IMG/VR virus record: IMGVR_UViG_3300032053_000025 | Location: 1-64,000 of that record | Direction: 5' to 3' (one strand) | DNA: 64,000 nt | Source of the DNA: a virus | Shown here: positions 4,701 to 61,645 of the stretch, one piece after another | Layout of the letters: each line of letters opens with the position of its first letter | Numbering within the stretch: the first letter of the stretch is position 1 | Translations under genes and position numbers: made by a program | The notes under the pieces: model-generated | What the model was told of the DNA's origin: nothing | What the model saw: only the letters and a program-made list of their open reading frames with translations | Database searches by the model: none

Positions 4701-4932
4701 TTTAGCGGCACGATATTTTTACGATGATGATGAAGGTGAAAGTGGATATTTTCTCATTGATGTTATTAGACAACGATACTGGCACACAAAAAGAATAAGT
4801 AAAATTCCATGCAAGTTTATGAGAGAAACGGGAAAATTAGTGCCAGTAAGTGAGAATTTAATTGCTGAACAGAAAGAGAATAAAGAAGTAAAAATTGAGG
4901 ATGGTAAAGAAGAAACCGAGGAGCAAAAATAA
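1753..4932 (+). CDS. Zn-finger/Prim-Pol primase fused to RecA-fold (SF4-like) helicase, interrupted by an intein
   Basis: CPHC zinc finger; Prim-Pol motifs NIAIRTG, VDID, SGRGFHFYY, VPPS; PriCT-like EGEGRN; Walker A GAGNKVGK|S split by the intein; IIDWL and IFAQL motifs. Confidence 0.85.
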   Translation: MDWYKQAILSKFTQYFKIKKYRYERDAILCPHCKNPSLTAHRIGTTYFLECLDPSCISKGKKFTLKTIVRTHEPDKKDWEGDKIIQYLKELLGIKALTPIDKININELFDRFVKEGFSLTPVAPNGSGVNEKHCIETSWTSLSHKDKLEWQSWLDVGLNIAIRTGEISNLTTVDIDHKDISDEIKQLTGDTWCLESGRGFHFYYHYDADLPKTRINKLDIDIENTGGACMVPPSITSNKGRKYINDLPIIDIPPKFKEFLLANIGRVDKPKSGELDFIIDDESYSCPLLKEGEGRNVFLFHYGSILSKKFSSQQVEDALSVFNKIACTPPLQYREIKTLIGSINKYRKFDEKGLADEILAYITDVKEATYKNVERVIFGDARLNAEDKKRIDKIIAHLKRQDLIQERGRLLIPMQRMKLTTNLINVSQPLPFKLPYFNELGKFCMGDIILIGAGNKVGKCIAKGLVLTNQGLRDISDIGKDKPEGWSSVNRHVRVFIGNKRKKGYRHPQGFYKEKVNTTIKIVTDHGYELEGTPEHPILVQTIGANQNFKDFKTLNAIEIGDKAVIVTPNLETKVLVRKFKDFKYRESKYAHGLCNLTLSSKIDEDMAKLFGYITGDGSLQKNVCKIYQNSKDLGNIEELKTICSKFNLPYKSNLSKNGKMTTINIFSVVFTSYVRKYLFENNFNRDYNLKSVDRFIPSIILQNTKSIQRAFIEGLYNCESWVTKNNVITIDLSNEKLIKQLHVLLLNFGIVSALRMRCGYKNRPTGRLTLSPEFCHKFLKTFSLAKYKDVQFKGFKNRSFSLQRCGVNGSTLEPAYYLDKIVSKEVINEEKYVYDFNLESKKYRINNQFWSNGFVSHNSHIAMNIIQQLVEQKVDMPKVLISLEPGSRHTDIALQLGLVEGDYEYNAEHYDPTEVELCNNAITIIDWLNPKTFETTHTIFEHFVRQITKHKGLLIIFAQLKDPIRGTEGNWFAPNMIKQMPALAARYFYDDDEGESGYFLIDVIRQRYWHTKRISKIPCKFMRETGKLVPVSENLIAEQKENKEVKIEDGKEETEEQK
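3130..4329 (+). mobile_element. Intein (400 aa) with LAGLIDADG endonuclease in the helicase Walker A
   Basis: Starts CIAKG after GK; block B LEGTPEHPI; LFGYITGDGS and FIEGLYNCES; ends YVYDF...VSHN followed by Ser. Confidence 0.93.
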
Positions 4933-17207: not shown

Positions 17208-17449
17208 TGAGGAAGAAATGCCACGATTGTTATTTATCTTTCAGTGTTCTTTTTGTCAATGGATTTATTTGCTCTGGCATAAGCAACAAACATACTATTC
17301 ATCCTATGGATAAACTTCATTTATGTATTAAGAGTGATATTTGCAATCGCCATCAGGAGATGACTGTCAAAGAAGCGGCTATAATTTGCTCATTATTAAC
17401 TAAAAATATGGCGGAATTGTCGCCATCTATTAAAAGGAGAATAAAATGA
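17207..17449 (+). CDS. Cys-rich hypothetical protein
   Basis: CHDC plus further Cys; TAATG overlap. Confidence 0.5.
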   Translation: MRKKCHDCYLSFSVLFVNGFICSGISNKHTIHPMDKLHLCIKSDICNRHQEMTVKEAAIICSLLTKNMAELSPSIKRRIK

Positions 17450-17655
17450 TGTTTGGGATTATTGTTATAGTTATACTTGCTATTACTGCTTGTATTGTGG
17501 ATTTTTATCTTGAGGATAAGAGGCGGGAGGAAACAGAAATTGTAAACTTGAAACAGGTGATTGCTCATCAAAAACAATTAATATTGGGGCTTCAATTAGA
17601 AAATTGCAATCTTAAAACCAAACCTGTGAAGAAATCAAAAAGGAGCAAGAAATGA
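17446..17655 (+). CDS. Small membrane-anchored coiled-coil protein
   Basis: N-terminal hydrophobic helix, AGGAG RBS. Confidence 0.55.
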   Translation: MMFGIIVIVILAITACIVDFYLEDKRREETEIVNLKQVIAHQKQLILGLQLENCNLKTKPVKKSKRSKK

Positions 17656-18038
17656 TAACATTTTCAATGAATTTGATTCAAATATTAATCACTGTTCTAA
17701 TAGGAACCTTTGGCTATGCTTCAGGTAAAGTATTAACTGGGGTATTAATCAAAGTTATATTTTCCAATCCTAAAGTTATTGCTTGGGGACAAGCAAGACA
17801 GAATAAAGCCAAAAAGAATATAGCTAAAGGTAAGCGTCAAGAAATCTATGAGCAATTACAGCACTTGGGCGAATTCATGGATTATTTAGGCACTCAACTA
17901 AAAAGAGATACTATGAAGCAAATGTACAAAGATTTTATTGATAAAGATAGGCGAAATTATTGGGTTAAAACAGTTATGGATATGTTTGCTCCTGAGCCTA
18001 TAAAACCTAAAGTTGTAGATGCAACCAAACCTAAATAA
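17652..18038 (+). CDS. Membrane-anchored hypothetical protein
   Basis: N-terminal hydrophobic stretch, AGGAG RBS. Confidence 0.55.
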   Translation: MITFSMNLIQILITVLIGTFGYASGKVLTGVLIKVIFSNPKVIAWGQARQNKAKKNIAKGKRQEIYEQLQHLGEFMDYLGTQLKRDTMKQMYKDFIDKDRRNYWVKTVMDMFAPEPIKPKVVDATKPK

Positions 18039-18529: not shown

Positions 18530-18956
18530 TTCAAACGCCCATACAATCTTGGAGAGTATTAGAGGATTTAATTTAGTGGTCCTCTATACACTTCCAGATA
18601 AATCTATTAAAACCGAGATTGCTACCTATACTAATTCTTATAGTCCTCAACAAGCATTCCCAACAATTAAAGCTATACTTTTAAAAGCTTTTATGAACCA
18701 TATTATTATTGAAGGTAGTGCTTCCATTACACCCGAAACTTATTATACCGTACAGTGCCCTAAATGTAGCCATGAAGCAGAAATTGTAGACTATGTTAAT
18801 TATCAAAACTTAAAAGGCTATCCTCACGATATAATTTGCCGGCATTGTGCTGCAAGTAAGGATTCCCAAACGCAATTAGAAAATGTAATTGGAATTTGTA
18901 AACTTAATTTATTTCAACGTTCAATCAGAGAGGCCTTCAATGTCAGAAATATTTAA
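18507..18956 (+). CDS. Hypothetical zinc-ribbon protein
   Basis: CPKC...CRHC. Confidence 0.55.
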   Translation: MDDLIIDNSNAHTILESIRGFNLVVLYTLPDKSIKTEIATYTNSYSPQQAFPTIKAILLKAFMNHIIIEGSASITPETYYTVQCPKCSHEAEIVDYVNYQNLKGYPHDIICRHCAASKDSQTQLENVIGICKLNLFQRSIREAFNVRNI

Positions 18957-19098
18957 AGCTATTTTATTATTGATAGGAATTTATTGCTTATTTTTATTCA
19001 TAATTCCCGCTATATTAATGTGGTTATTTGAAAAATTAGGTACTTGGAAATTGTATAAGAAGTGGTTGAATGTTATTTTAAACGAGGATATAATATAA
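18940..19098 (+). CDS. Small membrane protein
   Basis: GAGG RBS; hydrophobic AILLLIGIYCLFLFIIPAILMWLF. Confidence 0.5.
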   Translation: MSEIFKAILLLIGIYCLFLFIIPAILMWLFEKLGTWKLYKKWLNVILNEDII

Positions 19099-20372
19099 TG
19101 AATATTGGAGTAATTTTAGCTAGCGGTTCAGGAAATAGATTTCAATCTACCATTCCTAAACAGTACACAAAATTGAATGGTAGGCCGGTTATCTACTATG
19201 TTTTAGATGAATTTATTAAGTCTAAATTATTTGATAAAATTATAGTAGTAATCGATGATTTTAGGTTTAAATATTTGCTGGATAAATATCCAGTAATTGT
19301 AATTAAAGGGGGCGATACTCGCAATCGATCCATTGGGGAAGCAATCAAATATATATCTGATTATATTCCCAATACCCGAAATGTATTATTTCACGACGCG
19401 GTTCGCCCCTTAATTAAAGCCGAAGATTTATTCCAATATATGGATAGTTTAAATGGGGAAACAGTAATAGCCTCAATTACCACTGAAAAAGTAACCGATT
19501 CTTTATTATTTATTGATAGGTCAACAACCTGTTTAGTACAAACTCCCGAAGCTTTTGATTTTGAAATATTAAAATCAAGATTTAATCCTAAAGCAAATTA
19601 TACTGCAATTTATGAGCATTTAAAGCCCGCTATTAATGAGGAAATTGCACATATAGAATTAGGGCATCCAAACTATAAAATTACATATCAATACGATTTA
19701 TATATGCTTGAGCACTTAATTAAATACAATCAATATAAATCTACAATGCCTAATTTACAAGGCAAGAATATTCTATTGTTAGGTTCGACCGGAGGTATAG
19801 GTAAGGAAGTCTATAATCAATTAAAACAATTTCAACCTTTGAATATTTATTGCCCTTTACATTCAGAGATAGATTTATCCACTTATTTTATTGACAAATT
19901 GATGTCCAAATATACCTCAATCGATGTAATAATTAACTGTGCAGGTATAGCAATTAAAGATGAGGCTGAGAACTATGATATTCAAGAAAAAATATACAAT
20001 CAAACCTTTGATATTAATGTAAAAGCTCACTTACAGTTGATTAATTTTGCTGAACGTCAAAAGAGGCGGATTAATATAGTAACTATCAGTTCATCCTCAG
20101 TTACTAAGGGCAGACCTGGATATGGGATTTATTCTGCCTCTAAAATAGCCCTACAGAGCCTCATAGAGGCACAATCGGAAGCTTTAGCTGCCTCAGGTAT
20201 CTTTGTTACGTGTATATGCCCTGAACGAGTGGCAACTTCAATGGCAACAAATTTGCATGGGGAAGTTAATTTAGATGAAATGTTAAGTGTAGCTGAAGTT
20301 GCCCAAGCAATACTCTCATATAGTGATGTAAAAATAGGCGGAAAAATAATATATTTAAGAAGGGGGTTCTAA
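19098..20372 (+). CDS. Bifunctional IspD/TarI cytidylyltransferase + SDR reductase (Bcs1-like CDP-ribitol synthase)
   Basis: ILASGSGNRF..PKQY, GGDTR, HDAVRP, VQTPEAF, NYKIT; then GSTGGIG, NCAG, SSSS, YSASK. Confidence 0.88.
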   Translation: MNIGVILASGSGNRFQSTIPKQYTKLNGRPVIYYVLDEFIKSKLFDKIIVVIDDFRFKYLLDKYPVIVIKGGDTRNRSIGEAIKYISDYIPNTRNVLFHDAVRPLIKAEDLFQYMDSLNGETVIASITTEKVTDSLLFIDRSTTCLVQTPEAFDFEILKSRFNPKANYTAIYEHLKPAINEEIAHIELGHPNYKITYQYDLYMLEHLIKYNQYKSTMPNLQGKNILLLGSTGGIGKEVYNQLKQFQPLNIYCPLHSEIDLSTYFIDKLMSKYTSIDVIINCAGIAIKDEAENYDIQEKIYNQTFDINVKAHLQLINFAERQKRRINIVTISSSSVTKGRPGYGIYSASKIALQSLIEAQSEALAASGIFVTCICPERVATSMATNLHGEVNLDEMLSVAEVAQAILSYSDVKIGGKIIYLRRGF

Positions 20373-20374
20373 AA

Positions 20375-22243
20375 ATGCCTTACCGTAACCCGAATAATGC
20401 AGTAACAGTACTAACTTCATTAACCTCCATATTAACTACTTATGGTTTGAAGTATTTTCTTGATGGAGGAACCTTACTAGGAATTATACGTCAGAAGGCT
20501 TTCATCGAAAAAGACGGAGATATGGATATTGGTATTTTTACCAATGAATGGCAAGGATCAGAAGAGCATATTATATCAGCTTTAATAAATAAGGACTTTA
20601 AAATAGATAGGAATAATCCTCAATGTTTTGCTGTTAAGAAGGACAATATTCATATTGATTGCTGGAAATTCAATGAGAGGGACAATGATTATTTTCATTA
20701 TGGCTGGCAAGGCGAGTTTAGTTTTTGTAAAGACACTTTAGATACTTTAGATAAAGTTATTTTTATGAATCAAGAATTTACAACTCCCCATAATCCTAAA
20801 AAGTATCTCAAACATTTATATGGAGAGGATTGGCAAACTCCTAAATCTATGAATAAACCTTATGATTATCCTAACTATTCTGATAAGTCAACTTCAATGA
20901 GAGGATTGGCAAACTCCTATTCAATGAGAGTATTTTTGAAACAAGTTATTGATTTGCTCAATCAAAATGAAATTAGATATACCTTGATTTGTGGCTCGTT
21001 GCTTGGCGCATATAGGGATAAAAATATAATAGAAGGGGATGATGATTTTGATTTAGGCTTATTTGCGAAGGATTATGAGAAAGTTCGGCAATTATTAATT
21101 GATAATAATATCGTAATTAAAGCTCTATGGAGGAGAGAAATTTCAATTTTATCTACTCCACCTATCCCTAAATGTCAAATAGACCTATTCTTCTTAGAAA
21201 AGGAAGGTTCAAATTTATATTTATATTTATATAGCCAGAAACCCAATCCTTTATCTAAGAAATGGAATTTAGAATGGCGAAGGCAATTTCCGGCAAAATA
21301 TTTCAAGGAATTTGTACCTATTGATTTTATTGGATTAGAGGTTATGATACCTAAAGATACAGAAAAAATATTAGAACATCATTATGGAAACTGGAAGGTT
21401 AAGGATTCTAATGCTGAAGGAAATTTATGGAAACCAGATTCGATTGACCATAATTATAGAGAAATTGCAATTGTATCTACAAATTTTTTACGTAATGACA
21501 CCACGAAAGCATTTATAGAATCTATACAAAAAATACTGCCTAAAGAATGGTATAGGATTTATTTAGCAGACCAAGGCCCCTATGATGCAGAGATGGAGTT
21601 ATATTATGCAAAATTAAGGTTAGAAGGGCATGTTATTCAATGGTTGCCATACAACTGTGGATTAAGTTTTGCGAGGAATTACTTAGTTAAACAATCTAAA
21701 GAACCATACATATATTTAATGGATAATGATTTTATCCTTACTCCAGAGAGCGATCCTTCGCCAATGTTACAAATTTTAGAAGATAATCCTAATATAGGTA
21801 TTGTTGGTGCTAAATTAATCGAACATGAAGACTATCATTTTAATTTGATATGGTCGCTAAATCCTCGCAAATTATATTATGTGCCTACTTTGCCAACTTC
21901 AATTAGGCAAACTAAAGCATATAAATGCCAGAAAGCAATTTCATATAGGTTATGTGATATTGTCCTTAATTTTGCTTTATATAAAAGAGAAGTATTAAAT
22001 GACCTTTTATGGGATGAGGAATTAAAATTAGTCGAGCACTCCTCGTATTTTTTAAAACTAAAAGAATTAAACAAATGGCAGGTTGCATATACCCCAGATG
22101 TATTAGCTATTCATACTAAAGATAGGAAGGATGAAACTTATAGGACGTTTAGAGGTATTTTAAATGCTGAAAAATGCGAACAATTATTTCTTAAAAAATG
22201 GAAATTAGATAAACAAGATATAATCAAAATAAGAGGAGTATAA
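20375..22243 (+). CDS. Tandem LicD-LicD phosphotransferase fused to a GT-A glycosyltransferase
   Basis: GGTLLGIIR...DGDMDIG and CGSLLGAYR...DDDFDLG, each followed by YL/ILxHxYG.W; GT-A with NCGLSFARN, MDNDF, CDIVLNF, EH. Confidence 0.85.
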   Translation: MPYRNPNNAVTVLTSLTSILTTYGLKYFLDGGTLLGIIRQKAFIEKDGDMDIGIFTNEWQGSEEHIISALINKDFKIDRNNPQCFAVKKDNIHIDCWKFNERDNDYFHYGWQGEFSFCKDTLDTLDKVIFMNQEFTTPHNPKKYLKHLYGEDWQTPKSMNKPYDYPNYSDKSTSMRGLANSYSMRVFLKQVIDLLNQNEIRYTLICGSLLGAYRDKNIIEGDDDFDLGLFAKDYEKVRQLLIDNNIVIKALWRREISILSTPPIPKCQIDLFFLEKEGSNLYLYLYSQKPNPLSKKWNLEWRRQFPAKYFKEFVPIDFIGLEVMIPKDTEKILEHHYGNWKVKDSNAEGNLWKPDSIDHNYREIAIVSTNFLRNDTTKAFIESIQKILPKEWYRIYLADQGPYDAEMELYYAKLRLEGHVIQWLPYNCGLSFARNYLVKQSKEPYIYLMDNDFILTPESDPSPMLQILEDNPNIGIVGAKLIEHEDYHFNLIWSLNPRKLYYVPTLPTSIRQTKAYKCQKAISYRLCDIVLNFALYKREVLNDLLWDEELKLVEHSSYFLKLKELNKWQVAYTPDVLAIHTKDRKDETYRTFRGILNAEKCEQLFLKKWKLDKQDIIKIRGV

Positions 22244-22244
22244 A

Positions 22245-23645
22245 ATGCCATATCAATTACCTATAATTACCGAAAGTTTAATGCCGATGGATCTAAAAGC
22301 TGTAGAAAATTTAATTATTCCTAAAGTGGAAAATAAGGATATAGGGATAGTATTTGATAGTTTTCTTAGGGATAAATTGGTATTTAATTTAATTGAGAGT
22401 ATATGCAAATATGCACCCGGTTATAGAATGTATATTGCAGACCAAGGAATATTTGACCCTATTAAAAATTCCCTTTATTTAAGGTTAGAAGCTAAAGGTC
22501 ATAAGATTATTTATTGCGGTTTCGATTCAGGTGTAGCAAGATGTAGAAATGAAGCAATTAAACAAGCAACAGAACCTTATGTATTCCTATGCGATGGAGA
22601 CAACATATTTATACCTCAAACTAATTTAGAAAAATTAAAAGACTTAATGAAGTCTAGATTTACTCTATATTGGCTTGCAGGTTTAGAAGTAATTGATGAT
22701 AAGCCTATGTATTATGAAAATAACTTAGCCATAAAAGATAGGGTAGTACATTATACTCCTCAGACTGAGGAGTTTAAAAATAGTAATAAAGCCGTATTTA
22801 TGTGCGATATGACTATGAATCAAGGCTTAGTTAAGACTAAGTTATTTGACATTGTTAAATATGACTCAAGAATGATGTTAGCAGAGCATCTAGATTTATT
22901 TTTGCAGATTCAGACTAAAACCAAATACAAAGTCGGTATTACTAAACTATCCTCCATAGGTAATCAAAATTTTAAAATAGACAATCCTATTTATAATAAG
23001 TATAGAGGTCGCAATAAATTGTTTTGGCAGTATTATATTGAAAAATGGGGAATAGATTATGTTAACGATTGGAAGATTGAAACTCCTGATAATAAACTCG
23101 AATATGTATTAGTAGAGGAGAAACCTATAATTCCTCTCCCAATAATTCCAATAATACCAGTTATGCCTATAGTTAAAACAGAGATTGCAATGGTTAAGCA
23201 ACCTCCAATTACAATTATACCTACACCTGTGACTGCCCCTAAACCAATACCGATAATTCCTAAACGAACAGAACCTTATAATGAAGTTACTCAAGCCTTA
23301 TTAGATTTTGCTTCAATTTTAGATTCCAATGAAAAGGATTATTATTTGCTGAAAGGCACATGCTTGAATTATTTATTGCATAAACCTTTGTTGAATAAAG
23401 TTTATATCGGTCTTGCTTTAAATAAATCTATTGTAGAAATTTTGGTTAAAAAAGGATATGAGCAAAATGCGGCCAATATATTCAGGAAGAATGGTATCGA
23501 TTTTATAATTGAGTCTTATATTCCTTCAAGGTTTAAAGAAGGCAATGCTTTAGAAGGAAAGAATTTTAAAGTTCCTTATCCTGCGGTAGCGTATTTAATC
23601 GAACAATTTGGTAAAGATTGGGCTTTAACAATATTAAAGGAATAA
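22245..23645 (+). CDS. GT-A glycosyltransferase + Pro-rich linker + degenerate LicD-like domain
   Basis: DSGVARCRN, CDGDN, CDMTMN, AEHLD; PIIP linker; YYLLKGTCL...VPYPAVAYLIEQFGKDW. Confidence 0.8.
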   Translation: MPYQLPIITESLMPMDLKAVENLIIPKVENKDIGIVFDSFLRDKLVFNLIESICKYAPGYRMYIADQGIFDPIKNSLYLRLEAKGHKIIYCGFDSGVARCRNEAIKQATEPYVFLCDGDNIFIPQTNLEKLKDLMKSRFTLYWLAGLEVIDDKPMYYENNLAIKDRVVHYTPQTEEFKNSNKAVFMCDMTMNQGLVKTKLFDIVKYDSRMMLAEHLDLFLQIQTKTKYKVGITKLSSIGNQNFKIDNPIYNKYRGRNKLFWQYYIEKWGIDYVNDWKIETPDNKLEYVLVEEKPIIPLPIIPIIPVMPIVKTEIAMVKQPPITIIPTPVTAPKPIPIIPKRTEPYNEVTQALLDFASILDSNEKDYYLLKGTCLNYLLHKPLLNKVYIGLALNKSIVEILVKKGYEQNAANIFRKNGIDFIIESYIPSRFKEGNALEGKNFKVPYPAVAYLIEQFGKDWALTILKE

Positions 23646-24418
23646 TGGCAGAATTAGCAATAATAACGACAACACTATTTAGGGATAACCTTACCAAACA
23701 ATTCTTTACTAATCTTAGAAATTTGTTAGGTAAAGGTAACTATAAATTATACCTTGCAGATTTAGGGGTTTATTCAATAGAAGCAGAGCATAATTATCAT
23801 TGGTTGTTAGAAGTTCGAGGACACCATTATGAATGGTTACCTTTCAATTGTGGATTGGGTCATACTTATAATGCCCTTTTAGCCAAAGTTAAGGAACCTT
23901 TCATATATTTTATCAATAATGATGCTATATTGGCTTTAAAGTGCCATCCTAAGCCTCTACAAGCCGTTCTGTTGCACGATCTATCTATAGGTGCAGTAGG
24001 AGGTCAAACAATAGGGAAATCGACTAATAGGCACAATTTAAGCCTATCTCACAAGCCTAAAACAAGATTATTAGTTACTCCTGTACCTTTAGCGGCAAAA
24101 AGAAAATTGCCTATAGAATCTTGTAGGAATTTGGATTATTATTTGTGTGATTATGTTGAAGGCCCAGTATTGTTCAGAAGAGAAGTATTTGAGGATATTA
24201 ACTTCGATCCTTCATTTAAGAATGGTAATTTATTGGATTTATTTTTAAGATTAAAAGCAACTGAAAAATGGAATGTTGCTCAGGTACCTACTATGCAGAT
24301 TAAGAATTTAATTAATAAAAAAAGGGGAGTATATAAGATGTTTAATTTACCTGAAGATAAGTTATTTATGGATAAATGGGGATTAAAAAAGAAAGATTTT
24401 ATTATAGTAGGAGAATAA
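23645..24418 (+). CDS. GT-A glycosyltransferase paralog (degenerate DxD)
   Basis: LYLADLG, WLPFNCGL, INNDA, CDYVEG. Confidence 0.72.
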   Translation: MAELAIITTTLFRDNLTKQFFTNLRNLLGKGNYKLYLADLGVYSIEAEHNYHWLLEVRGHHYEWLPFNCGLGHTYNALLAKVKEPFIYFINNDAILALKCHPKPLQAVLLHDLSIGAVGGQTIGKSTNRHNLSLSHKPKTRLLVTPVPLAAKRKLPIESCRNLDYYLCDYVEGPVLFRREVFEDINFDPSFKNGNLLDLFLRLKATEKWNVAQVPTMQIKNLINKKRGVYKMFNLPEDKLFMDKWGLKKKDFIIVGE

Positions 24419-24420
24419 TT

Positions 24421-25065
24421 ATGGAAAAGCTATTATTTATAGGAAGCCATTTAGACGATATAGAAATTGCAGCGGGAGGCACTGTTGCTAAAGCAATTCA
24501 AAAAGGACACGTTATAAAAACGGTCATTATGTCTAAATCCGACTATACTAACTATGACGGAAAAATATTACGGACATGGACTGAAGCCCACGAAGAAGGA
24601 ATAGAGGCCCTACATATTTTAGGCGTAACCGATATAGATATTTTATCTTTTTCCGTAAAGGATACTCCTTATGATTCTTCCTCTATAGAGGCACTTAATA
24701 AAATTATGGATAAATTTCAACCTACACAAATCATAACCCACTGGCCATTTGATACACATCAATCTCATCGCAATACTGCATTGGCTTCTATATCAGCAGG
24801 ACGGAACTTTAATAACATATTAATGTATGAATCCTTTCCACCTAGCGGAAGAAGTTATGTAGCATTTAAACCTCAAGTATATTCGGATATTACCGATGTT
24901 TTAGCACTCAAGATGCAATCCTTAAAAGCACATAAAAGTCAATATAAGAAATATGGAGAACTGTGGATAGATGCCGTAATTGGAAGAGCCCAATTAAGAG
25001 GGTGGGAATGTGGTAATAAGTATGCTGAATGTTTTGAATTATTAAGAAGCGACCTAATACTATGA
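24421..25065 (+). CDS. PIG-L/LmbE family N-deacetylase
   Basis: SHLDDIE, AGGT, DTHQSH, AHKSQ, YAECF. Confidence 0.9.
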   Translation: MEKLLFIGSHLDDIEIAAGGTVAKAIQKGHVIKTVIMSKSDYTNYDGKILRTWTEAHEEGIEALHILGVTDIDILSFSVKDTPYDSSSIEALNKIMDKFQPTQIITHWPFDTHQSHRNTALASISAGRNFNNILMYESFPPSGRSYVAFKPQVYSDITDVLALKMQSLKAHKSQYKKYGELWIDAVIGRAQLRGWECGNKYAECFELLRSDLIL

Positions 25066-25205
25066 TACATTATTATCCTCATAATGATTGGATTGAACAT
25101 AAATTAGAAGGCACTCAATGTATTTGCGAACCTAAAATTGATTGGCATTTAGGTATAGTTATTCATAATTCTGCCGATGGCAGAGAAGAGAAGGAGAGTA
25201 TATGA
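25062..25205 (+). CDS. Small His/Cys hypothetical protein (47 aa)
   Basis: MIHYYPHNDWIEH...CICEP...IVIHNSADGRE; ATGA overlaps on both sides. Confidence 0.55.
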   Translation: MIHYYPHNDWIEHKLEGTQCICEPKIDWHLGIVIHNSADGREEKESI

Positions 25206-26425
25206 TAATTTCAATTCACCAGCCCGAGGCTTTCTGTCATTTATCCCTTTTAGATACAATATCTAAATCTGAGTTGTTTATTATTGGGGACGATTTTCAA
25301 TATCAGAAATCGTACTTTGACAATCGCAATAAAATTCGATCCAACTCTAAAGAAGGCTGGTCATGGCTAACTATCCCCGTTCAAGCTTCCAACAATCATA
25401 TTGCTATAAAGGATATTAAGGTAGCTTCGGGTGATTGGAAGAATAAATTACTCAATCAATTAACATCGAGCTATCAACATGCTCCTTATTTTAATGTTTA
25501 TTTTCCTCAATTGCAAGAATTATTGAAGACACAAAGCGAATACCTTATTGATTATACTTTACCTATACTACAATGGTTCCTACTCCAATTTAAAATTTAT
25601 ACTCCAATTAAATTAATGAGCAAATTAAATATCCAATCTGATAATGGTTCTGATAAGGTTTTGGAAATTTGTAAAAAGGTGGGAACAAATACTTACTTAT
25701 CGGGTCCAAGTGGGAAGGATTATCTGAATTTAGCTTCCTTTAAGGAAGCAGGAATAGACTTGCAGTATCATAATTATTTACATCCTTATTACCAATCATT
25801 TCCAAAGGTAGATATGCTCCCAGGCTTATCTGCTTTAGATTGTTTATTCTCACATGGACCAAACTCAAACAATATTATGCAGGCTAAAGGTATAGGTAGC
25901 ATGGCTACAATTATGGGGAATATTGAATATAAACATAGGTCCATTCTTGAGGTATTTGGCGGGGATGGTACGGGCCAATTATCATCATATGGTAACACAG
26001 TTGATTGTTCTAATTTAACAATATGGGAATTAGATTTGCAAAATGTATATAAACTTAGGGATAAATATCCTCATGCTAATGTTAAGCATGTTGATTCTTT
26101 AATTGAAGCCAAAAAGACTAATCAAACCTTTGATATTATTATAATTGATACTCCGGCATTGATGTCTAACAATAAATTATTACCTCAAATATCAAACTTA
26201 CTTACCGAGGATGAGGATGGAATACTTATATTTAGAGCAATTAAACAATCGTGGAATAATCATCCTTCAGTGGAAGTTGACCAACCCATTGAATATTGGA
26301 AATTAATTTTTCAACAGGACTTTGATATTATTAATATGAAAGAAGTGCAAAGAGAATATTTTTGGAGTGAAGGTAAGTGGAAATTATGGTTAAGCAATTA
26401 CCTTTTCCAATTAAGGAGGATATAA
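25202..26425 (+). CDS. WbqC-like protein fused to a SAM-methyltransferase-like domain
   Basis: SIHQP, DDFQYQK...NRNKI, WLTIPV, YLSGPSGKDYL, LSALD; C-terminal LEVFGGDG...FDIIIID. Confidence 0.82.
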   Translation: MIISIHQPEAFCHLSLLDTISKSELFIIGDDFQYQKSYFDNRNKIRSNSKEGWSWLTIPVQASNNHIAIKDIKVASGDWKNKLLNQLTSSYQHAPYFNVYFPQLQELLKTQSEYLIDYTLPILQWFLLQFKIYTPIKLMSKLNIQSDNGSDKVLEICKKVGTNTYLSGPSGKDYLNLASFKEAGIDLQYHNYLHPYYQSFPKVDMLPGLSALDCLFSHGPNSNNIMQAKGIGSMATIMGNIEYKHRSILEVFGGDGTGQLSSYGNTVDCSNLTIWELDLQNVYKLRDKYPHANVKHVDSLIEAKKTNQTFDIIIIDTPALMSNNKLLPQISNLLTEDEDGILIFRAIKQSWNNHPSVEVDQPIEYWKLIFQQDFDIINMKEVQREYFWSEGKWKLWLSNYLFQLRRI

Positions 26426-26426
26426 A

Positions 26427-27338
26427 ATGAGTAAAATATTCAAGCCTTTTAAACTCCCTAATGACTCTGTAGATGTAAATACTCTACAATTCCCTTTATT
26501 AGCCAGCAGAAAGCTGGATGGATTGAGACTAGTTGTCAACAAGGGTGGTATGTTTACTTGTTCATTAAAACAATTTCCCAATGTGCAATTGCAGGGCAGG
26601 TTCGAGCATTTAATGAAGATTTCCAGAGGACTAAATTTACTCTTAGATGGAGAATTATTAGCTAAGAGTTTAACTTTCTATGAATTAAGTGGGCTTTGCA
26701 GGAGGCTAGACGCACCCTTACCAGAGGATTTATATTTTTATGCCTTTGATGCGGTACAAAACGAGCAATATGATATGGAGTTTAGCAAGAGGATATCTTA
26801 TTTAGACAATATAGCAAAATATTCTTATGTTAAGGTTCTAGAACAAAGATTAGTTAAATCTATAGAAGAAGTCTGGGCATTTTATGAAGAGGCATTAAAA
26901 GAAGGTCATTGTGATGGGCTAATCTTGAGAAGCCCAATGGGTAGATATAAATGTGGTAGAGCAACTATCAATGAAGGTTTGGGATATAAATTAAAGCCAT
27001 TCGAGACAATAGACTCCGCAATTATAGGGGTTGTACAAGCAACTGAGGTAGATCCAAGGGCAGAAAAGACAATCAACGAGCTGGGGCGGAGTACAACCTC
27101 TAAGAAATTAGGGGATAGAATTTTAATTGAAAAAGCCTCTGCTTTTGTTGTCAAGTATGAAGGAAAAGATTTGAAAGTTACTATTGCAATGACTGATATA
27201 GAGAAAGAAGAAATTTGGAAGAATAAGGATTCTTATATTGGAAGATGGATTGAATTCAAAGCCATGAGGGTGGGAATGCTTGAAGATGGTTTGCCAAGGC
27301 ACCCCACAACCCTGAGAATGAGAACCGATAAAGACTAA
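26427..27338 (+). CDS. lig: ATP-dependent DNA ligase
   Basis: SRKLDGLR, LDGE, YAFD, DGLILR, YKCGR, KLKP, PRHP. Confidence 0.92.
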   Translation: MSKIFKPFKLPNDSVDVNTLQFPLLASRKLDGLRLVVNKGGMFTCSLKQFPNVQLQGRFEHLMKISRGLNLLLDGELLAKSLTFYELSGLCRRLDAPLPEDLYFYAFDAVQNEQYDMEFSKRISYLDNIAKYSYVKVLEQRLVKSIEEVWAFYEEALKEGHCDGLILRSPMGRYKCGRATINEGLGYKLKPFETIDSAIIGVVQATEVDPRAEKTINELGRSTTSKKLGDRILIEKASAFVVKYEGKDLKVTIAMTDIEKEEIWKNKDSYIGRWIEFKAMRVGMLEDGLPRHPTTLRMRTDKD

Positions 27339-27339
27339 T

Positions 27340-27552
27340 ATGCACTATATGCCTAAAAATACCAACTATTTAGCGATACTCGATAAGACCGAATCCATAG
27401 GCAAACAAATTAACGCAAATAAAATGATTGATTTGCGTATAGCAAGGGGCGGTTGTTTTGTTGCCCGTTATTATATTAAGACTGCAAAAATTAAAGGTAT
27501 TGAAGTAGACTTAATGTATGAAGTCAAGATTTATGACAATCTGAAATCATAG
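27340..27552 (+). CDS. Hypothetical protein
   Basis: ORF fills the gap between ligase and FkbM. Confidence 0.45.
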   Translation: MHYMPKNTNYLAILDKTESIGKQINANKMIDLRIARGGCFVARYYIKTAKIKGIEVDLMYEVKIYDNLKS

Positions 27553-27562
27553 GAGAATAATA

Positions 27563-28258
27563 ATGGAAATTAAGCAATACAAAGACTATCAAATCCAACT
27601 TCGATCCTCCTCAGATGCAGGAGTATTCCAAGAAATTATCATTAACAATTGTTATGGTATTGATTTTAAATGGTTTGATAAAGTAAAGACCATCATTGAT
27701 ATTGGTGGCCATATAGGTATATTTAGTTTATTTATTGCTCCTTATGTTGATAAGATTTATACCTTTGAACCTTATTGGCAAAATTATAGATTATTGGTAG
27801 AAAATGTAGACCAGAATAATTTACTATCTAAAATTAAATGTCATCAAAAAGCAGTTACCCATTATGAAGGAGTAATTGATTTTTATGAATCTAAACAAAC
27901 CCATGTAAGACATACTATTGTACCTCCGGGGCAATTAAAATTTTGCGACCAAGGGGAGAAAATAATTGTGCCTTGCACTTCTCTCTTCAATATTATGTCT
28001 ACTATTGGGCATCCAACCTTATTGAAAATAGATATTGAAGGTGGAGAATATTCCTTACTATTCAATACACCCGAGCAAGCATTTAAAAATATTACTTACA
28101 TTGTTATGGAAACTCACCATGACGAATCTTCCCTTTTCAATAAAGACGATCTTATCAAAAAATTAGAAAGTTATGGCTACAAAGTTTCCTGGAAATTTAA
28201 CTGGAAAGACCCAGACTATAAAATGACAACCGGAGATTTAATAGCCATAAAAGAATAG
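27563..28258 (+). CDS. FkbM family methyltransferase
   Basis: IDIGGHIGIFS, FEP, LKIDIEGGE, METH. Confidence 0.9.
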   Translation: MEIKQYKDYQIQLRSSSDAGVFQEIIINNCYGIDFKWFDKVKTIIDIGGHIGIFSLFIAPYVDKIYTFEPYWQNYRLLVENVDQNNLLSKIKCHQKAVTHYEGVIDFYESKQTHVRHTIVPPGQLKFCDQGEKIIVPCTSLFNIMSTIGHPTLLKIDIEGGEYSLLFNTPEQAFKNITYIVMETHHDESSLFNKDDLIKKLESYGYKVSWKFNWKDPDYKMTTGDLIAIKE

Positions 28259-28265
28259 GAGTAAA

Positions 28266-29141
28266 ATGAGTTATAAACTCCAATTATTAAAAGAAAGTTT
28301 AATACCAATTACTGCCCAAGATTTAATTAATATAGGTGGAATTCCACCTATAGACCCCACCAAACAAGTGGCTATTGTTATTGATTCCTTCCTTAGAGAT
28401 AAATGTTTATTAATCCTCCTTAAAAGTATATTTAAATTCGCACCTCATTATAAAATTTATATTACAGGCCAGGGCATCTATAGTAAAGAGAAAGATGCCC
28501 TTTTTTGTTTATTGAAGGTAGCAGGCCATACCATAATTAATTGTGGCTTTGATGCAGGATTAGGTCAATGTCACAAAAAGATAGTAGAATTTGTGACTGA
28601 GCCTTATATATTTTTCTGCCATGAGGACGCTTTATTTACTGATAAAACTAACTTAGAATCAATGGTTAATATAATCAAACTTAATAGATATAGATTAGGT
28701 TGGCTATCTCCTTCTTCCTTATTCAATCAACCTTCCCATTTATTATTGAAAAATTTAAATTTAGCTATTACTCCTCTTGAAGTAGAATTTAAAAATAGTC
28801 ATAGAGATCCATTTATTTGCGATATTGCAGGTACTCAAGGTTTAGTTAAATCAACCTTATTTAGTTCAATCCAATATGATGCTCAATTTAAAATGAATGA
28901 AACTTTAGACTTAATGTTAAACATGAAATTTAATACTGTTAATAGAGTAGCAATCACCAACCAATCTATATTATGGCATCAAGAACCTTGTGAGCATCCT
29001 ATCTATCTTCAATATAAGCATAGGGAATGGTATTATGACCAATTATTAAGGACTAAATGGCAATTTACAAGTATTAATGGAAGAAAAATTAAAAGGGATA
29101 ATACTAAGTTTCTTTATGTTATGGAGGAAAATAATGGATAA
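28266..29141 (+). CDS. GT-A glycosyltransferase paralog of 22245..23645 (degenerate DxD)
   Basis: IVIDSFLRDK, CGFDAG, EPYIFFCHED, CDIAGTQGLVK. Confidence 0.72.
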   Translation: MSYKLQLLKESLIPITAQDLINIGGIPPIDPTKQVAIVIDSFLRDKCLLILLKSIFKFAPHYKIYITGQGIYSKEKDALFCLLKVAGHTIINCGFDAGLGQCHKKIVEFVTEPYIFFCHEDALFTDKTNLESMVNIIKLNRYRLGWLSPSSLFNQPSHLLLKNLNLAITPLEVEFKNSHRDPFICDIAGTQGLVKSTLFSSIQYDAQFKMNETLDLMLNMKFNTVNRVAITNQSILWHQEPCEHPIYLQYKHREWYYDQLLRTKWQFTSINGRKIKRDNTKFLYVMEENNG

Positions 29142-29889
29142 ATCTATCGCAGTAATTATGCCCTGCTTTAAACGTAACGAATTATTAGCCCAAACTGTAG
29201 AAACATATAAGCAATTTATGCCTAAAGATTGGGTATTATTAATTGGGGATCAAGACCCTTCTGAGGCTAAATTTAAGCAATATAATGCTGGCAATATTCA
29301 TTATTATCCCCTCCCCTATGATTGCGGGATTAGCTTAGCCAGAAATATGTTGATTAAAGAAGCCTCTAAATCAGGCTTCGAATACGGATTATTATCTGCC
29401 GATAGTATACCATTAATTAAAACGCCGGATTTAACTCCATATATTGAATTCCTTAAAATGGATCCTAATCATGGAATTATCGGGCTTCCTACGAGCGATA
29501 ATTTAAAGAAAGAGGATTTATGGAATGCTAATTTGTCCATTGATTCTGAGGGAATTCATTTATGGCCCGCTAACGAGTATACCGAGTTTAATGGGATTAA
29601 ATATAAGAAATGCCAGATTGTTAGCAATTTCTTTTTGTTTAAATTGCAATTAGCACTTGAGAACCCTTGGAGGGAGGAATTAAAATTAGCAGAGCATGAA
29701 TCGTTTTTCATTGACCTAATGCAGAAAACTTTATACAAGGTTTTCCATACTCCCTATAGGTTCGCTACATATATTCAATCTCGACCACCAGATTATGATA
29801 TTTATAGGCGAAGGTTGTATGATACTTATATCCCGTTGCTTCGTAAACTTTATGGGCTGAGGGCCTGGATAATTTACCATAATCGTTAA
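29134..29889 (+). CDS. GT-A glycosyltransferase
   Basis: IAVIMPCFKR, IGDQ, YDCGISLARN, SADS, VSNFFLF, LAEHESFF. Confidence 0.78.
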   Translation: MDKSIAVIMPCFKRNELLAQTVETYKQFMPKDWVLLIGDQDPSEAKFKQYNAGNIHYYPLPYDCGISLARNMLIKEASKSGFEYGLLSADSIPLIKTPDLTPYIEFLKMDPNHGIIGLPTSDNLKKEDLWNANLSIDSEGIHLWPANEYTEFNGIKYKKCQIVSNFFLFKLQLALENPWREELKLAEHESFFIDLMQKTLYKVFHTPYRFATYIQSRPPDYDIYRRRLYDTYIPLLRKLYGLRAWIIYHNR

Positions 29890-29900
29890 CAGGAGGTTTA

Positions 29901-30062
29901 ATGTTATTAGGAGCTCGAGTTCTAGCTAGGATTGACAATAAAGTCAAAGAATGTAGAGTAATTGATATTCAAGGGGACAATCTACAATTGGAAGCTGTTA
30001 CCGGCGAAATTATAAGCCGAAAATATTGGCAAGTAAATGGGGTTAAAAATGAGCAAGCCTAA
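29901..30062 (+). CDS. Hypothetical protein (53 aa)
   Basis: AGGAGG RBS; MLLGARVLAR...NEQA. Confidence 0.5.
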   Translation: MLLGARVLARIDNKVKECRVIDIQGDNLQLEAVTGEIISRKYWQVNGVKNEQA

Positions 30063-30777
30063 TCAGTTAATTATTCTTGGGGGAGGAGTATCGGTAACTG
30101 AAGGAATTGAATTAGGCCTTTGGGATAAAATTAAAGACCACTATGTTATGGGACTTAATTTTGCCTTCAAAACATTTAATCCAACCTTCACTTGTTTTGT
30201 TGACCCTATAAGTTTCTACCGAACATATAAGAGTGATATATTTAATCTGCCTTTAATTGTAGGTCGATATTCGAAAGATATTGTTAAGGATATTTGGCCC
30301 AATACAATTCTATTAAAGGATACTTGGATTTATAAGAGGGATTGCTCTGAGGGAGTTTACAATATATTTTTATGTGGAATATTTGGATTATCGTTAGCAA
30401 TTTATTTAGCAGATAAGATAGATATAAAAGAAATTTTCATGTTAGGGATAGATGGTGGAAACATAACTGGCAACCATGATAAATTTGGAAAATGGGAATC
30501 ACATTACTATAGTTCAGAATTTACCCATAAGGGAACAGGTAAAATTAAGACCTATCATAAAGATGATGCTATACATAAAATGTATAAGGCTTTTGAGCAA
30601 GTTCAAGACATCAATATTTACAATGTTTCGCCTTTAAGTAGGATTAAACAGTTTCCTAAGATTGATTATTTGACATTCTTCGATAAAATTGAGACTACAA
30701 CTTATGACCAAAACTTACTTAGACTTGATATTAAACAACATTGCATAGATTTAGCAAACTTGCAAAAACAACATTAA
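30049..30777 (+). CDS. Maf/DUF115-like (sialyltransferase-like fold) protein
   Basis: IILGGGVSV, MGLN, FVD, EIFMLGIDG, HYY, IYNVS motifs. Confidence 0.65.
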   Translation: MSKPNQLIILGGGVSVTEGIELGLWDKIKDHYVMGLNFAFKTFNPTFTCFVDPISFYRTYKSDIFNLPLIVGRYSKDIVKDIWPNTILLKDTWIYKRDCSEGVYNIFLCGIFGLSLAIYLADKIDIKEIFMLGIDGGNITGNHDKFGKWESHYYSSEFTHKGTGKIKTYHKDDAIHKMYKAFEQVQDINIYNVSPLSRIKQFPKIDYLTFFDKIETTTYDQNLLRLDIKQHCIDLANLQKQH

Positions 30778-57398: not shown

Positions 57399-57853
57399 TA
57401 AATTATTGGCTCCCTCTTAAAAGGATCTGTCATTGTAGGTAATCCATTGGAATCTAAAAGATTAAATTGATATAAAACCGCTATTCCGTCCTCAGCATAT
57501 AAAATAAGCTTATTTTCCTTGATTTCCCATTTGCCCTTCTCGATATTTAAAATTGTAGTTACATTCAATCCAATTGTAGTTAAACTTGCTTGTTCGGCTA
57601 AACCACCTGTATTATTAGTAGCCGATTGGTATCGTTCGTAATTATTTAATGAGGCACCGCCATCGGTGCGTATTGCATAATCTTTGGTGTCATCATACTC
57701 GGCAAATTCATAGGAATAAAATCCCTCGGCAACTTCATTCATTGAGGCATCAGTAATTACTAAAGAATTATCCGATAAATCTCTAATTCTGATAGTGGGA
57801 GTTAATCCGGTCTTAGGTATTCCATTATCTGTAAAGAATGAAGTTATTAACAT
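57398..57853 (-). CDS. Putative head decoration/fibre protein
   Basis: PKTGLTPTIRI...MNEVAEGFYSYEF Ig-like pattern. Confidence 0.5.
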   Translation of the reverse strand: MLITSFFTDNGIPKTGLTPTIRIRDLSDNSLVITDASMNEVAEGFYSYEFAEYDDTKDYAIRTDGGASLNNYERYQSATNNTGGLAEQASLTTIGLNVTTILNIEKGKWEIKENKLILYAEDGIAVLYQFNLLDSNGLPTMTDPFKREPII

Positions 57854-61069: not shown

Positions 61070-61645
61070 TTATGTGGTAGAAATAATTAAGCAGCCATAG
61101 TCAGAAGAATACGTAGCACCCGGCCCAGTTTGGCCTTGGGGCCCTGTAATACCAATAGTTCCTCGATCCCCTTTACTTCCTTTGGTACCCTGTATGCCCT
61201 GAGATCCTAATGTACCTCGATCTCCCTTAGTTCCCTGAATACCTTGAGAACCCAAGGTACCTCTATCGCCCTTACTACCTTTGGTGCCTTGAATTCCGGC
61301 AGTCCCTTGTATACCTTGGGACCCTAAAGTTCCTCTATCACCTTTGGTGCCTTGAATACCCTGTTGGCCCAAATATTCTGCCCAAGTAGTGCCACTAGTA
61401 CAATGATAATACTTATCTTCGTCGTCTACCCATACTATCATACCTTCCAAAGGTGTGTCATAAAGAAAAGAAGTAGCCGCTACATTACAATAAGCTATCT
61501 GTCCTACATTTGCGCCATCAGTAAGTAAATACCTATCACCTTTTGCGGCTGCTCCAGTTAAACTAATTAATCCTGCCGCTGTAACTCTGTCCTTCACACT
61601 TGGTTGCCAAACAAAATTTTCTAAAACGGGTACTCTGTAACTCAT
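61070..61645 (-). CDS. Collagen-like fibre protein with DUF2793-like N-domain
   Basis: KGDRYLL...PLEGMIVWVDDEDK followed by Gly-X-Y repeats. Confidence 0.8.
   Translation of the reverse strand: MSYRVPVLENFVWQPSVKDRVTAAGLISLTGAAAKGDRYLLTDGANVGQIAYCNVAATSFLYDTPLEGMIVWVDDEDKYYHCTSGTTWAEYLGQQGIQGTKGDRGTLGSQGIQGTAGIQGTKGSKGDRGTLGSQGIQGTKGDRGTLGSQGIQGTKGSKGDRGTIGITGPQGQTGPGATYSSDYGCLIISTT
61115..61369 (-). repeat. Collagen Gly-X-Y repeat (~28 triplets; unit GTKGDRGTLGSQGIQ)
   Basis: Direct translation. Confidence 0.9.

Follow-up and report, generated by a model that had tools for sequence, protein, structure and literature searches.

The window analysed here is the first 64 kb (64,000 nucleotides) of an 88,621-base IMG/VR virus record (IMGVR_UViG_3300032053_000025), which is rated about 95% complete, has a G+C content of about 33% and is identified as a tailed phage by its PHROG and Pfam matches. 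The subject is an open reading frame (ORF) at 20375-22243 (+) that starts with ATG and encodes a protein of 622 amino acids (aa). The original prediction, made from the sequence, was that this protein joins two complete LicD domains to a GT-A glycosyltransferase (GT), and that it may be a viral analogue of the ISPD/fukutin/FKRP system of animals. The layout holds. The ORF is open and intact, Pfam LicD (PF04991) matches it twice and Glycos_transf_2 (GT2) once (aa 370-544), and the two motifs quoted for the LicD domains, GGTLLGIIRQKAFIEKDGDMDIG and CGSLLGAYRDKNIIEGDDDFDLG, are found in the translation. When the parts were scanned separately, LicD scored 45.7 bits in aa 1-180 (E 1.1e-11) and 56.6 bits in aa 181-355 (E 5e-15), and GT2 scored 37.1 bits in the C-terminal 267 aa, against Pfam gathering cut-offs of 22.6 bits for LicD and 23.3 bits for GT2. 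A six-frame search of the record returned the same four LicD pieces, in a single frame and free of stops. Both LicD copies match only the ends of the 227-position profile and leave its middle (about 46-180) unmatched; read from the sequence, LicD1 and LicD2 are compact LicDs of about 160 aa. The LicD-LicD-GT fusion occurs again in a protein from another contig (P0002, 86% identity; P numbers denote proteins and L numbers loci) and in the diverged proteins P0036, P0049 and P0094, and therefore is not an assembly artefact.

An AlphaFold2 model built with 20 homologs has a mean predicted local distance difference test score (pLDDT) of 86.8 and consists of three domains (1-160, 179-344 and 352-622) with disordered linkers between them. 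LicD1 (aa 1-160; 20375..20854 (+)) has the nucleotidyltransferase fold and carries G31-G32-T33, D47, D49, D51 and D95. The linker that follows (aa 161-178; 20855..20908 (+)) is disordered, with a pLDDT below 50, and is the site of an indel in P0002. LicD2 (aa 179-345; 20909..21409 (+)) has invariant L209, L210, G211 and R214, together with G207-S208, D222, D224, D226 and D270, which are invariant across 20 homologs. The C-terminal B4GALNT1-like GT-A domain (aa 352-622; 21428..22243 (+)) contains D450-N-D452 and E554-H555.

For both domains the sole LicD relative of solved structure is human FKRP, matched by phmmer with LicD2 (aa 184-341, E 7.8e-6) and with LicD1 (aa 17-150, E 2.9e-5), where HIDCWKF of LicD1 is aligned to HVDLWPF of FKRP. 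FKRP residues D360, D362, D364 and D416 are each essential, and an hG[GS] motif has been named (PMC6965139). The four essential aspartates and the hG[GS] motif are matched in both phage domains, by D47/D49/D51/D95 in LicD1 and by G207-S208 and D222/D224/D226/D270 in LicD2, with the FKRP residue numbers placed on the alignment by us rather than taken from the paper. Structure comparison agrees: the LicD1 model (residues 1-161) superposes on the FKRP catalytic domain (chain 6kal_B) over 160 residues (VIA-align Z 18.6, root-mean-square deviation (rmsd) 2.4 A). LicD1 begins at residue 1 of the phage protein and aligns from FKRP residue 313 on. LicD2 has the same order of secondary structure as LicD1 in the model, is matched to the LicD1 family by hhalign at 99.9%, and has FKRP among its Foldseek rows, for which no residue range is given. 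With the motifs present in both domains and the folds as described, neither domain lacks the nucleotidyltransferase fold. The two domains are 24% identical to each other.

The closest solved relative of the GT domain, and of the paralog encoded by the next gene, is human B4GALNT1 (GM2/GD2 synthase; PDB 9H6J-9H6L). It is matched by phmmer (aa 355-582, E 2.5e-7), by Foldseek (E 9.7e-16) and by VIA-align (Z 25.1, rmsd 2.5 A, 239 residues, 23% identity), with the next GT-A families at Z 19. The DxD motifs are aligned, MDNDF of the phage domain with VDDDF of B4GALNT1; D452 is invariant and D450 at least 90% conserved across 20 homologs. Identity to B4GALNT1 is about 21-23%, and the phage protein differs from it in being soluble and fused to LicD domains. 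B4GALNT1 belongs to the inverting GT-A enzymes of CAZy family GT12. A 137-aa stretch of the GT domain (aa 426-562) is about 34% identical to hypothetical proteins in 184 Salinibacter ruber M8 phage records, the sole protein match in the phage collection. A B4GALNT1-like GT is thus present, unannotated, in the genomes of cultured halophages.

Spread and fusion history of the LicD-GT family

A search of 5.8 billion clustered proteins found 47 relatives of the 622-aa protein. The usual form of the family is a LicD-GT protein of about 440 aa, which corresponds to residues ~180-622 of the window protein; forms of about 900 aa add GT and dead-LicD modules. LicD is joined to a B4GALNT1-like GT in 43 of 195 fetched proteins, and five of these 43, the window's own included, have two LicDs. 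Tandem LicDs as such are not unique, since a further 24 of the 195 proteins have two or more LicDs without the B4GALNT1-like GT. Used alone as a query, LicD1 matched 4,607 proteins at E <= 1e-3, and its best matches beyond its own lineage are stand-alone LicDs of 170-200 aa, such as P0048 (172 aa, 41% identity). Among viral contigs an alignment-based scan gave 28 loci and a single-protein scan gave none. The genomes of 185,579 prokaryotic species gave five matches only, all to the GT domain alone and all in metagenome-assembled genomes. Within the collections searched, the LicD-GT family hardly occurs outside viral and unassigned metagenomic DNA.

The phylogeny of each LicD domain was examined in a quick maximum-likelihood tree with SH-aLRT (Shimodaira-Hasegawa-like approximate likelihood ratio test) support. 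The tree sampled 111 of 224 near-full-length domains: all 48 GT-linked LicDs, all other domains from the loci and a random 45 of the remainder. The GT-adjacent domains form one clade (SH-aLRT 95), and the distal domains lie in two separate places. Those of the window protein, P0002 and P0049 are placed among stand-alone mini-LicDs; those of P0036 and P0094 fall in a 98-supported clade with the stand-alone LicDs of L010, L020, L031 and L034. Because these two places are separated by well-supported branches, a second LicD was acquired in at least two independent fusions. The unfused state is seen in L010, where a mini-LicD gene ends 1 nt before the LicD-GT gene. The repeated, independent fusion of a second LicD to LicD-GT speaks for both LicD activities being directed at one and the same product. 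Tandem duplication was also considered as the origin of LicD1 and LicD2, and is ruled out by their 24% identity and their different clades.

Probable donor synthesis and the surrounding operon

The gene for the 622-aa protein is the second in a glycan operon, a co-directional and tightly packed block at 19062-30777 (about 11.7 kb). As had been noted, it directly follows a gene resembling a CDP-ribitol synthase: the upstream ORF (19062..20372 (+), with its likely true start at ATG 19098) ends 2 nt before the ATG of the 622-aa protein. The upstream product joins an IspD-family cytidylyltransferase (aa 17-219, Pfam E 7.9e-27) to a short-chain dehydrogenase/reductase (SDR; aa ~235-420, with Pfam adh_short at about 275-412, E 9.6e-23). 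Its translation contains the motifs GSGNRF, TGGIG (NAD(P)-binding) and YSASK (catalytic), and its PDB relatives are IspD/TarI/ISPD and SDRs. An isoprenoid reading of IspD, as in the methylerythritol phosphate (MEP) pathway, is ruled out by the fused SDR, the LicD context and the lack of any other MEP-pathway family among the Pfam matches.

The IspD-SDR layout is also the domain order of Acs1/Bcs1. The phage gene resembles these in having both activities in one chain, and in Haemophilus influenzae Acs1/Bcs1 act both as ribulose-5-phosphate reductase and as CDP-ribitol pyrophosphorylase (cited in PMC4873967). By this likeness the IspD-SDR protein appears to be an Acs1/Bcs1-type CDP-alditol synthase, and its product is probably CDP-ribitol. 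It differs from Acs1/Bcs1 in scoring below the ribitol-specific cut-off and in that related phages swap IspD for a TagD-like enzyme; other CDP-alditols are possible. An IspD-SDR gene lies directly upstream of the LicD gene in L007, L016, L031 and L034 and is split in two genes in L014 (tblastn, five of the 28 viral loci), and in L010 and L020 an SDR and a TagD-like cytidylyltransferase stand beside the mini-LicD and LicD-GT genes (Pfam, 137 ORFs from nine loci). The pair of reductase and cytidylyltransferase is thus a recurring partner of the family, which favours a CDP-alditol as donor over CDP-choline and CDP-glycerol. The likeliest alditol of the donor is ribitol. The bacterial module of Acs1/Bcs1 with LicD is a nearer relative of the phage genes than the animal system.

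The next gene (22245..23645 (+)) encodes a 466-aa protein that consists of a GT-A domain (aa ~29-280; D117-G-D119, E214-H215), a linker (281-344) and a degenerate LicD (~345-466). Pfam assigns it GT2, and its AlphaFold2 model, built from a shallow 12-row alignment, has a pLDDT of 75.8, with the Pro/Ile-rich linker below 50, and matches B4GALNT1 at VIA-align Z 24.9. A word-indexed search for relatives of this protein gave one 92% homolog. The dead LicD-derived domain (about 120 aa, window 23277-23642) has its DxDxD loop deleted. It is identified by hhalign, which matches it to the LicD1/mini-LicD family at 96.2% (E 2.5e-9) and to LicD2 at 93.0%, the VIA-align list for the 466-aa model being filled by GT-A chains. 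The domain recurs at the C-terminus of many LicD-GT relatives (P0014, P0026, P0030, P0038, P0049, L007, L009 and L014) and may serve in substrate binding or as a scaffold.

Two further GT-A paralogs, at 23645..24418 (+) (listed from TTG 23618) and 28266..29141 (+), have no Pfam match and were recognized by alignment, five-way for the first, and by tblastn to the GT domains of related loci. The paralog GTd (29077..29889 (+); Pfam GT2 E 1e-4) keeps the EH motif, has homologs of 35-41% identity in L007, L009, L014 and L016, and is retained after the LicD-GT gene in related phages. In an alignment of the five B4GALNT1-like GT-A paralogs of the operon, the DxD-type motif and EH are kept in three and not in the other two. 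The paralogs at 23645-24418 (N-N-D, no EH) and 28266-29141 (H-E-D, E without H) may, from these substitutions, be non-catalytic.

Further operon genes, a DNA ligase gene among them, lie between and after the paralogs. A PIG-L family de-N-acetylase (24376..25065 (+); PF02585 E 3.6e-17) is found beside LicD-GT in L007 as well. A WbqC-like domain (aa 7-223; PF08889 E 3.8e-54) is encoded at 25202..26425 (+) and conserved in L007, and the C-terminal region of that protein has a methyltransferase-like glycine motif in its translation. An FkbM-family methyltransferase (27563..28258 (+); PF05050 E 4.7e-11) has a counterpart after the LicD-GT gene in L008. The last gene (30037..30777 (+)) encodes a conserved cassette protein that belongs to no Pfam family and has homologs in L008-L011, L014, L016 and L020. 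Seven of the nine matches of its profile to the PDB are GT42 sialyltransferases (Cst-II, Lst), all weak (best E 0.02), and PF01973 (MptE-like/Maf) is found in three of six members of its family (best E 6.2e-6); it is possibly a CMP-sugar transferase. No gene for CMP-sugar synthesis was seen alongside it in the record.

None of the cassette enzymes has a transmembrane-like segment. The initiating phosphoglycosyltransferases and Wzx-type flippases that would mark a Wzx/Wzy- or ABC-type envelope polysaccharide locus (PF02397, PF00953 and PF01943; Bac_transf, Glycos_transf_4 and Polysacc_synt) were not matched anywhere in the 88.6-kb record, while the controls were positive in 10-13 of 14 genomes; the host could supply such functions. 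The cassettes of L008, L011 and L020 contain an APS (adenosine 5'-phosphosulfate) kinase, several sulfotransferases, a pyruvyl transferase, a PHO4 phosphate transporter and a KpsC/KpsS-like Capsule_synth protein. Such enzymes imply sulfated and pyruvylated variants of the phage glycan. Since relatives have APS kinase, sulfotransferases, pyruvyl transferase and methyltransferases instead, the cassette is a variable glycan locus.

The operon lies inside a replication/repair block, with SbcCD-like and MmcB-like genes upstream and the DNA ligase gene within. The replication and repair genes of the record include a primase-polymerase with an intein, a UvsX-like recombinase, an SbcCD-like nuclease, an MmcB-like gene and a DNA ligase, and its structural genes, by PHROG and Pfam, include a tape measure, a tail fibre and collagen-like proteins. 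Its DNA polymerase is of family-B type with a separate exonuclease subunit and matches PHROG 262 and T4-like cyanophage polymerases; identity to the latter is about 24%, and the phage has no close cultured relative. A nucleotide search with the cassette found no match in 50,697 phage records. A fusion of GT2, tetratricopeptide repeat (TPR) and methyltransferase domains is encoded at window 59564-60991 (-), between a tail fibre gene (DUF2793 and F5/8 type C, 57847-59553) and a gene for a collagen-repeat protein (61070-61645), and is a candidate virion-protein glycosyltransferase.

Proposed chemistry, acceptor and rival readings

The best overall explanation, which we hold with slightly more confidence than doubt, is that the 622-aa protein is a soluble, three-activity glycan-building enzyme in a phage glycan operon. 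We infer its donor, the order of its steps and its acceptor as follows. The IspD-SDR enzyme would reduce a ketose-phosphate of the host and then, using CTP, form a CDP-alditol, with CDP-ribitol made from ribulose-5-phosphate as the most likely product. LicD2 and the GT-A domain, the conserved core pair, would catalyze neighbouring steps, the GT-A domain adding a sugar, probably of a beta-N-acetylhexosamine (HexNAc) type, and LicD2 transferring alditol-phosphate to form a phosphodiester bond with release of CMP. LicD1, a recruited mini-LicD, would place a second alditol-phosphate either on the first, as in the tandem made by FKTN and FKRP, or on an adjacent residue. Extension and trimming of the chain would fall to the remaining GT-A paralogs, the deacetylase, the methyltransferases and the GT42-like protein. 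The acceptor would most likely be a phage-made cytoplasmic macromolecule, virion proteins first. Alditol-phosphate transfer is the most likely activity of the LicD domains, judged by their conserved residues and their gene neighbours.

The analogy to fukutin and FKRP can be retained in part. Like the human FKRP/fukutin/ISPD system (PDB 6KAJ-6KAN), the phage has an IspD-family donor enzyme and two LicD/nucleotidyltransferase-fold transferases with hG[GS] and four aspartates, and the parallel in enzyme families and in chemistry stands, FKRP being the sole solved LicD relative and its four aspartates being kept. FKRP also has a GT-A-fold domain in the same chain as its LicD, but this stem is an inactive GT-A look-alike (PMC6965139). 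In contrast, the GT-A domain of the phage protein is C-terminal and looks active. The phage protein further differs from FKRP and FKTN in having two LicDs in one chain and no membrane anchor, and its donor gene has its own reductase. The N-terminal stem and zinc-finger loop (G288-C318) of FKRP, which shape how its acceptor is recognized, are not present, and only an 18-residue disordered linker precedes LicD2. The animal parallel is not specific. FKTN and FKRP owe their sequential specificity to stem and zinc-finger parts, and these are missing from the phage domains. With these parts missing, and with LicD1 grouping with stand-alone mini-LicDs, the LicD domains are not specific counterparts of fukutin and FKRP. 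Nor does anything in the data show the tandem laying of two alditol-phosphates. In Streptococcus pneumoniae the paralogs LicD1 and LicD2 decorate one repeat unit, each of two neighbouring sugars receiving a phosphocholine on a lipid-linked glycan, and this pattern fits equally well.

Several results weigh against the proposed chemistry and against a phage-made acceptor. The IspD-SDR protein scores 80.9 bits with NF001183 (D-ribitol-5-phosphate cytidylyltransferase; cut-off 166) and 115.1 bits with TIGR00453 (ispD; cut-off 181.3). By the tests run, which included Pfam scans of nine loci, 21 of the 28 related loci have no cytidylyltransferase in their flanks. LicD enzymes are able to use CDP-choline or CDP-glycerol. 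In VIA-align, GT-A chains filled the lists and left no separate structural match between LicD2 and FKRP; the LicD2 assignment draws on sequence, profile and Foldseek matches. The cassette is in the replication block and not in the structural block, and no virion protein is tied to it. The sulfotransferases and APS kinase of some relatives are uninformative on the acceptor.

A virion or other phage protein is the leading candidate for the acceptor, though we hold this tentatively. Points for a phage-made target are that the enzymes are soluble, that carrier and export genes are lacking and that the family is largely restricted to viral and metagenomic DNA. In addition, the GT2-TPR-methyltransferase gene lies between tail-fibre and collagen-like genes, and the cassettes of L015 and L021 abut terminase and portal genes. 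Chlorovirus glycosyltransferases such as PBCV-1 A064R are comparable in having several transferase domains that each add one residue in the cytoplasm with no lipid carriers, and differ in having no LicD. It is conceivable, at a strength just short of evenly balanced, that the lineage as a whole assembles a carrier-free, cytoplasmic, teichoic-acid-like or dystroglycan-like glycan containing two alditol-phosphates on a phage macromolecule (virion proteins or, as hinted by the YerA41 IspD-SDR block, the DNA), and that the cassette, with its alditol-phosphate, sulfate, pyruvate and methyl variants among relatives, is a hypervariable 'serotype' locus.

The host envelope is a doubtful acceptor, yet it is the strongest competitor of a phage protein. 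The enzymes would take undecaprenyl-linked or lipid-linked precursors of the host as substrates on the membrane's inner face, giving an altered teichoic acid, capsule, O-antigen or protein O-glycan, and, with the same doubt, would block superinfection or alter the surface of a lysogen. Bacterial LicD enzymes normally act on lipid-linked surface glycans, TarS, TarP and RmlT (wall teichoic acid glycosyltransferases) are among the top fold rows, and an integrase-family gene in the record (L005 14871-15650) makes lysogeny possible. The same idea has been proposed for the licD of 'Flandersviridae' gut phages, some of which have ispD and licD adjacent in the replication module, the genes being interpreted there as serving isoprenoid and phosphocholine functions (Benler et al. 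2021, PMC8008677). However, neither initiating phosphoglycosyltransferase nor flippase families matched in the 95%-complete record, every enzyme of the cassette is predicted to be soluble, and the product of about eight transferase domains would need acceptance by the host export machinery. Moreover, the cassette is in a long co-directional block of replication genes, away from the integrase gene, and the LicD-GT family is nearly absent from cellular genomes. The 'Flandersviridae' resemble this phage in size class and in having the same two enzyme families adjacent within a replication block, but theirs are two single-domain genes, and neither an SDR nor a GT fusion nor a second LicD is described for them. 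Within the phage collection the 'Flandersviridae' LicDs did not match the 622-aa protein at E 1e-5, and in the literature on phage LicD, CDP-ribitol or ribitol phosphate, Benler et al. 2021 was the sole report of a phage licD found. Some other acceptor is slightly less probable than the host envelope.

It is improbable that only one of the two LicDs transfers alditol-phosphate, the other using host CDP-choline, CDP-glycerol or CDP-ethanolamine or mainly binding the acceptor as the FKRP stem does. The 24% identity and different clades of LicD1 and LicD2 would allow this, as would the presence in the cassette of a conserved LicD-derived domain clearly without catalysis. The best NCBIfam match of the 622-aa protein is a cholinephosphotransferase model, though at 92.9 bits it is far below the cut-off of 225. 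Against such a division of labour, every catalytic residue tested in FKRP is kept in both domains, and LicDs of both clades are found directly downstream of IspD-SDR elsewhere (mini-LicD in L031 and L034, LicD2 in L007 and L016). By Pfam matches, the record also has no gene to activate choline or glycerol-3-phosphate.

Somewhat less probable again is that LicD2 and the GT domain alternate as a polymerase of a teichoic-acid-like [sugar-alditol-phosphate]n, with LicD1 priming or capping the chain, much as in capsule polymerases of several domains, where a glycosyltransferase is coupled to a TagF-like alditol-phosphate transferase. Known two-activity polymerases likewise have a pair of transferases on a single polypeptide, the LicD-GT pair is found fused without exception in 43 proteins, and the ~900-aa forms carry further GT and dead-LicD modules. 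Yet numerous single transferases and tailoring enzymes accompany the pair in the operon, as is usual where a defined oligosaccharide is made, and parts for chain-length control or export are lacking. To our knowledge no LicD enzyme polymerizes, and FKRP and FKTN each add a single unit (PMC6965139).

The least probable of the readings considered is that a base in the phage DNA receives the alditol-phosphate/sugar chain as protection against host nucleases, a kind of hypermodification found in the SP-15, YerA41 and Carin-5 group. Two features of this phage recall Yersinia phage YerA41, namely a sugar-gene block, here the cassette, beside or inside replication and repair genes, and an IspD-SDR fusion of the same layout as that of YerA41 (26% identity over 94% of the query, E 8e-17), which lies in a sugar-gene block adjoining the DNA polymerase gene. 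Thymidine in YerA41 carries a phosphate-containing modification of about 1 kDa with repeated, unexplained 184-Da units (PMC9023294; PMC12686479), and known DNA-modifying phage GT-A enzymes resemble TarP (preprint 10.1101/2023.12.21.572611). But YerA41 has no LicD, and the KpsC-like proteins, PolA-UDG (uracil-DNA glycosylase) polymerase and 5-hydroxymethyldeoxyuridine (5-hmdU) route that it does have were not seen in this phage, whose polymerase is family-B-like and not of the SP15 PolA-UDG type. PF00303 (thymidylate-synthase-like hydroxymethylase) has no match in the record, with the control positive in 10 of 14 genomes; PF12851 (TET/JBP, a mark of TET/5mYOX-dependent DNA glycosylation clusters) also has none, but its control was silent in every genome, and neither a C5-methyltransferase nor a dioxygenase is among the Pfam matches of ORFs of at least 100-120 aa. 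DNA of the YerA41 type is refractory to standard sequencing (PMC7354516; PMC13697223), whereas ordinary metagenomes yielded the assemblies of this genome and of 28 related contigs. A chain built by about eight transferase domains would exceed every known DNA adduct in size.

The IspD-SDR fusion of YerA41 is YerA41_151 (MW570730.1 93990-95357; L040). By our own arithmetic, the mass of the 184-Da unit is that of a tetritol-phosphate residue (C4H9O6P, 184.08 Da). As a corollary of a carrier-free phage glycan, the unit would be tetritol-phosphate made by the IspD-SDR enzyme of YerA41. Similarly, we would assign the composition of a 154-Da ion reported for Carin-5, C3H7O5P, to a glycerol-phosphate residue.

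Glycans with alditol-phosphate have been described in bacterial walls and capsules, and in animals as a single glycan, the loss of which leads to muscular dystrophy. The largely phage-restricted LicD-B4GALNT1-like fusion family would add viruses to the makers of such glycans, and its place in a variable operon that makes its own donor and has no export machinery suggests a kind of phage-made glycoconjugate not examined before. Four points are new: the LicD-B4GALNT1-like core family, a double-LicD form that evolved twice, a dead-LicD module that is conserved, and a link to YerA41. The compact, soluble LicDs (about 160 aa) could be tractable models of FKRP and fukutin chemistry and tools for phosphodiester-linked glycans, and the YerA41 link provides a concrete, testable guess on an unsolved DNA modification.

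Three minor features of the record lie outside the operon. A row of genes for MazG, a PF18909 protein (dATP/dGTP diphosphohydrolase N-terminal domain) and a TSCPD protein (L006 4377-5428; record ~84377-85428) resembles the nucleotide-pool editing that accompanies non-canonical purines; no PurZ-like gene is among the Pfam or PHROG matches. Directly upstream of the cassette, at window 17446-18038 and 18889-19098, are three short ORFs whose products have strongly hydrophobic stretches (KD19 up to 2.97). Finally, the intein in the primase-polymerase gene (window 1753-4932) contains a LAGLIDADG homing endonuclease (Pfam Intein_splicing and LAGLIDADG_3), and P0015, a LicD-GT relative on a different contig, likewise bears an intein.

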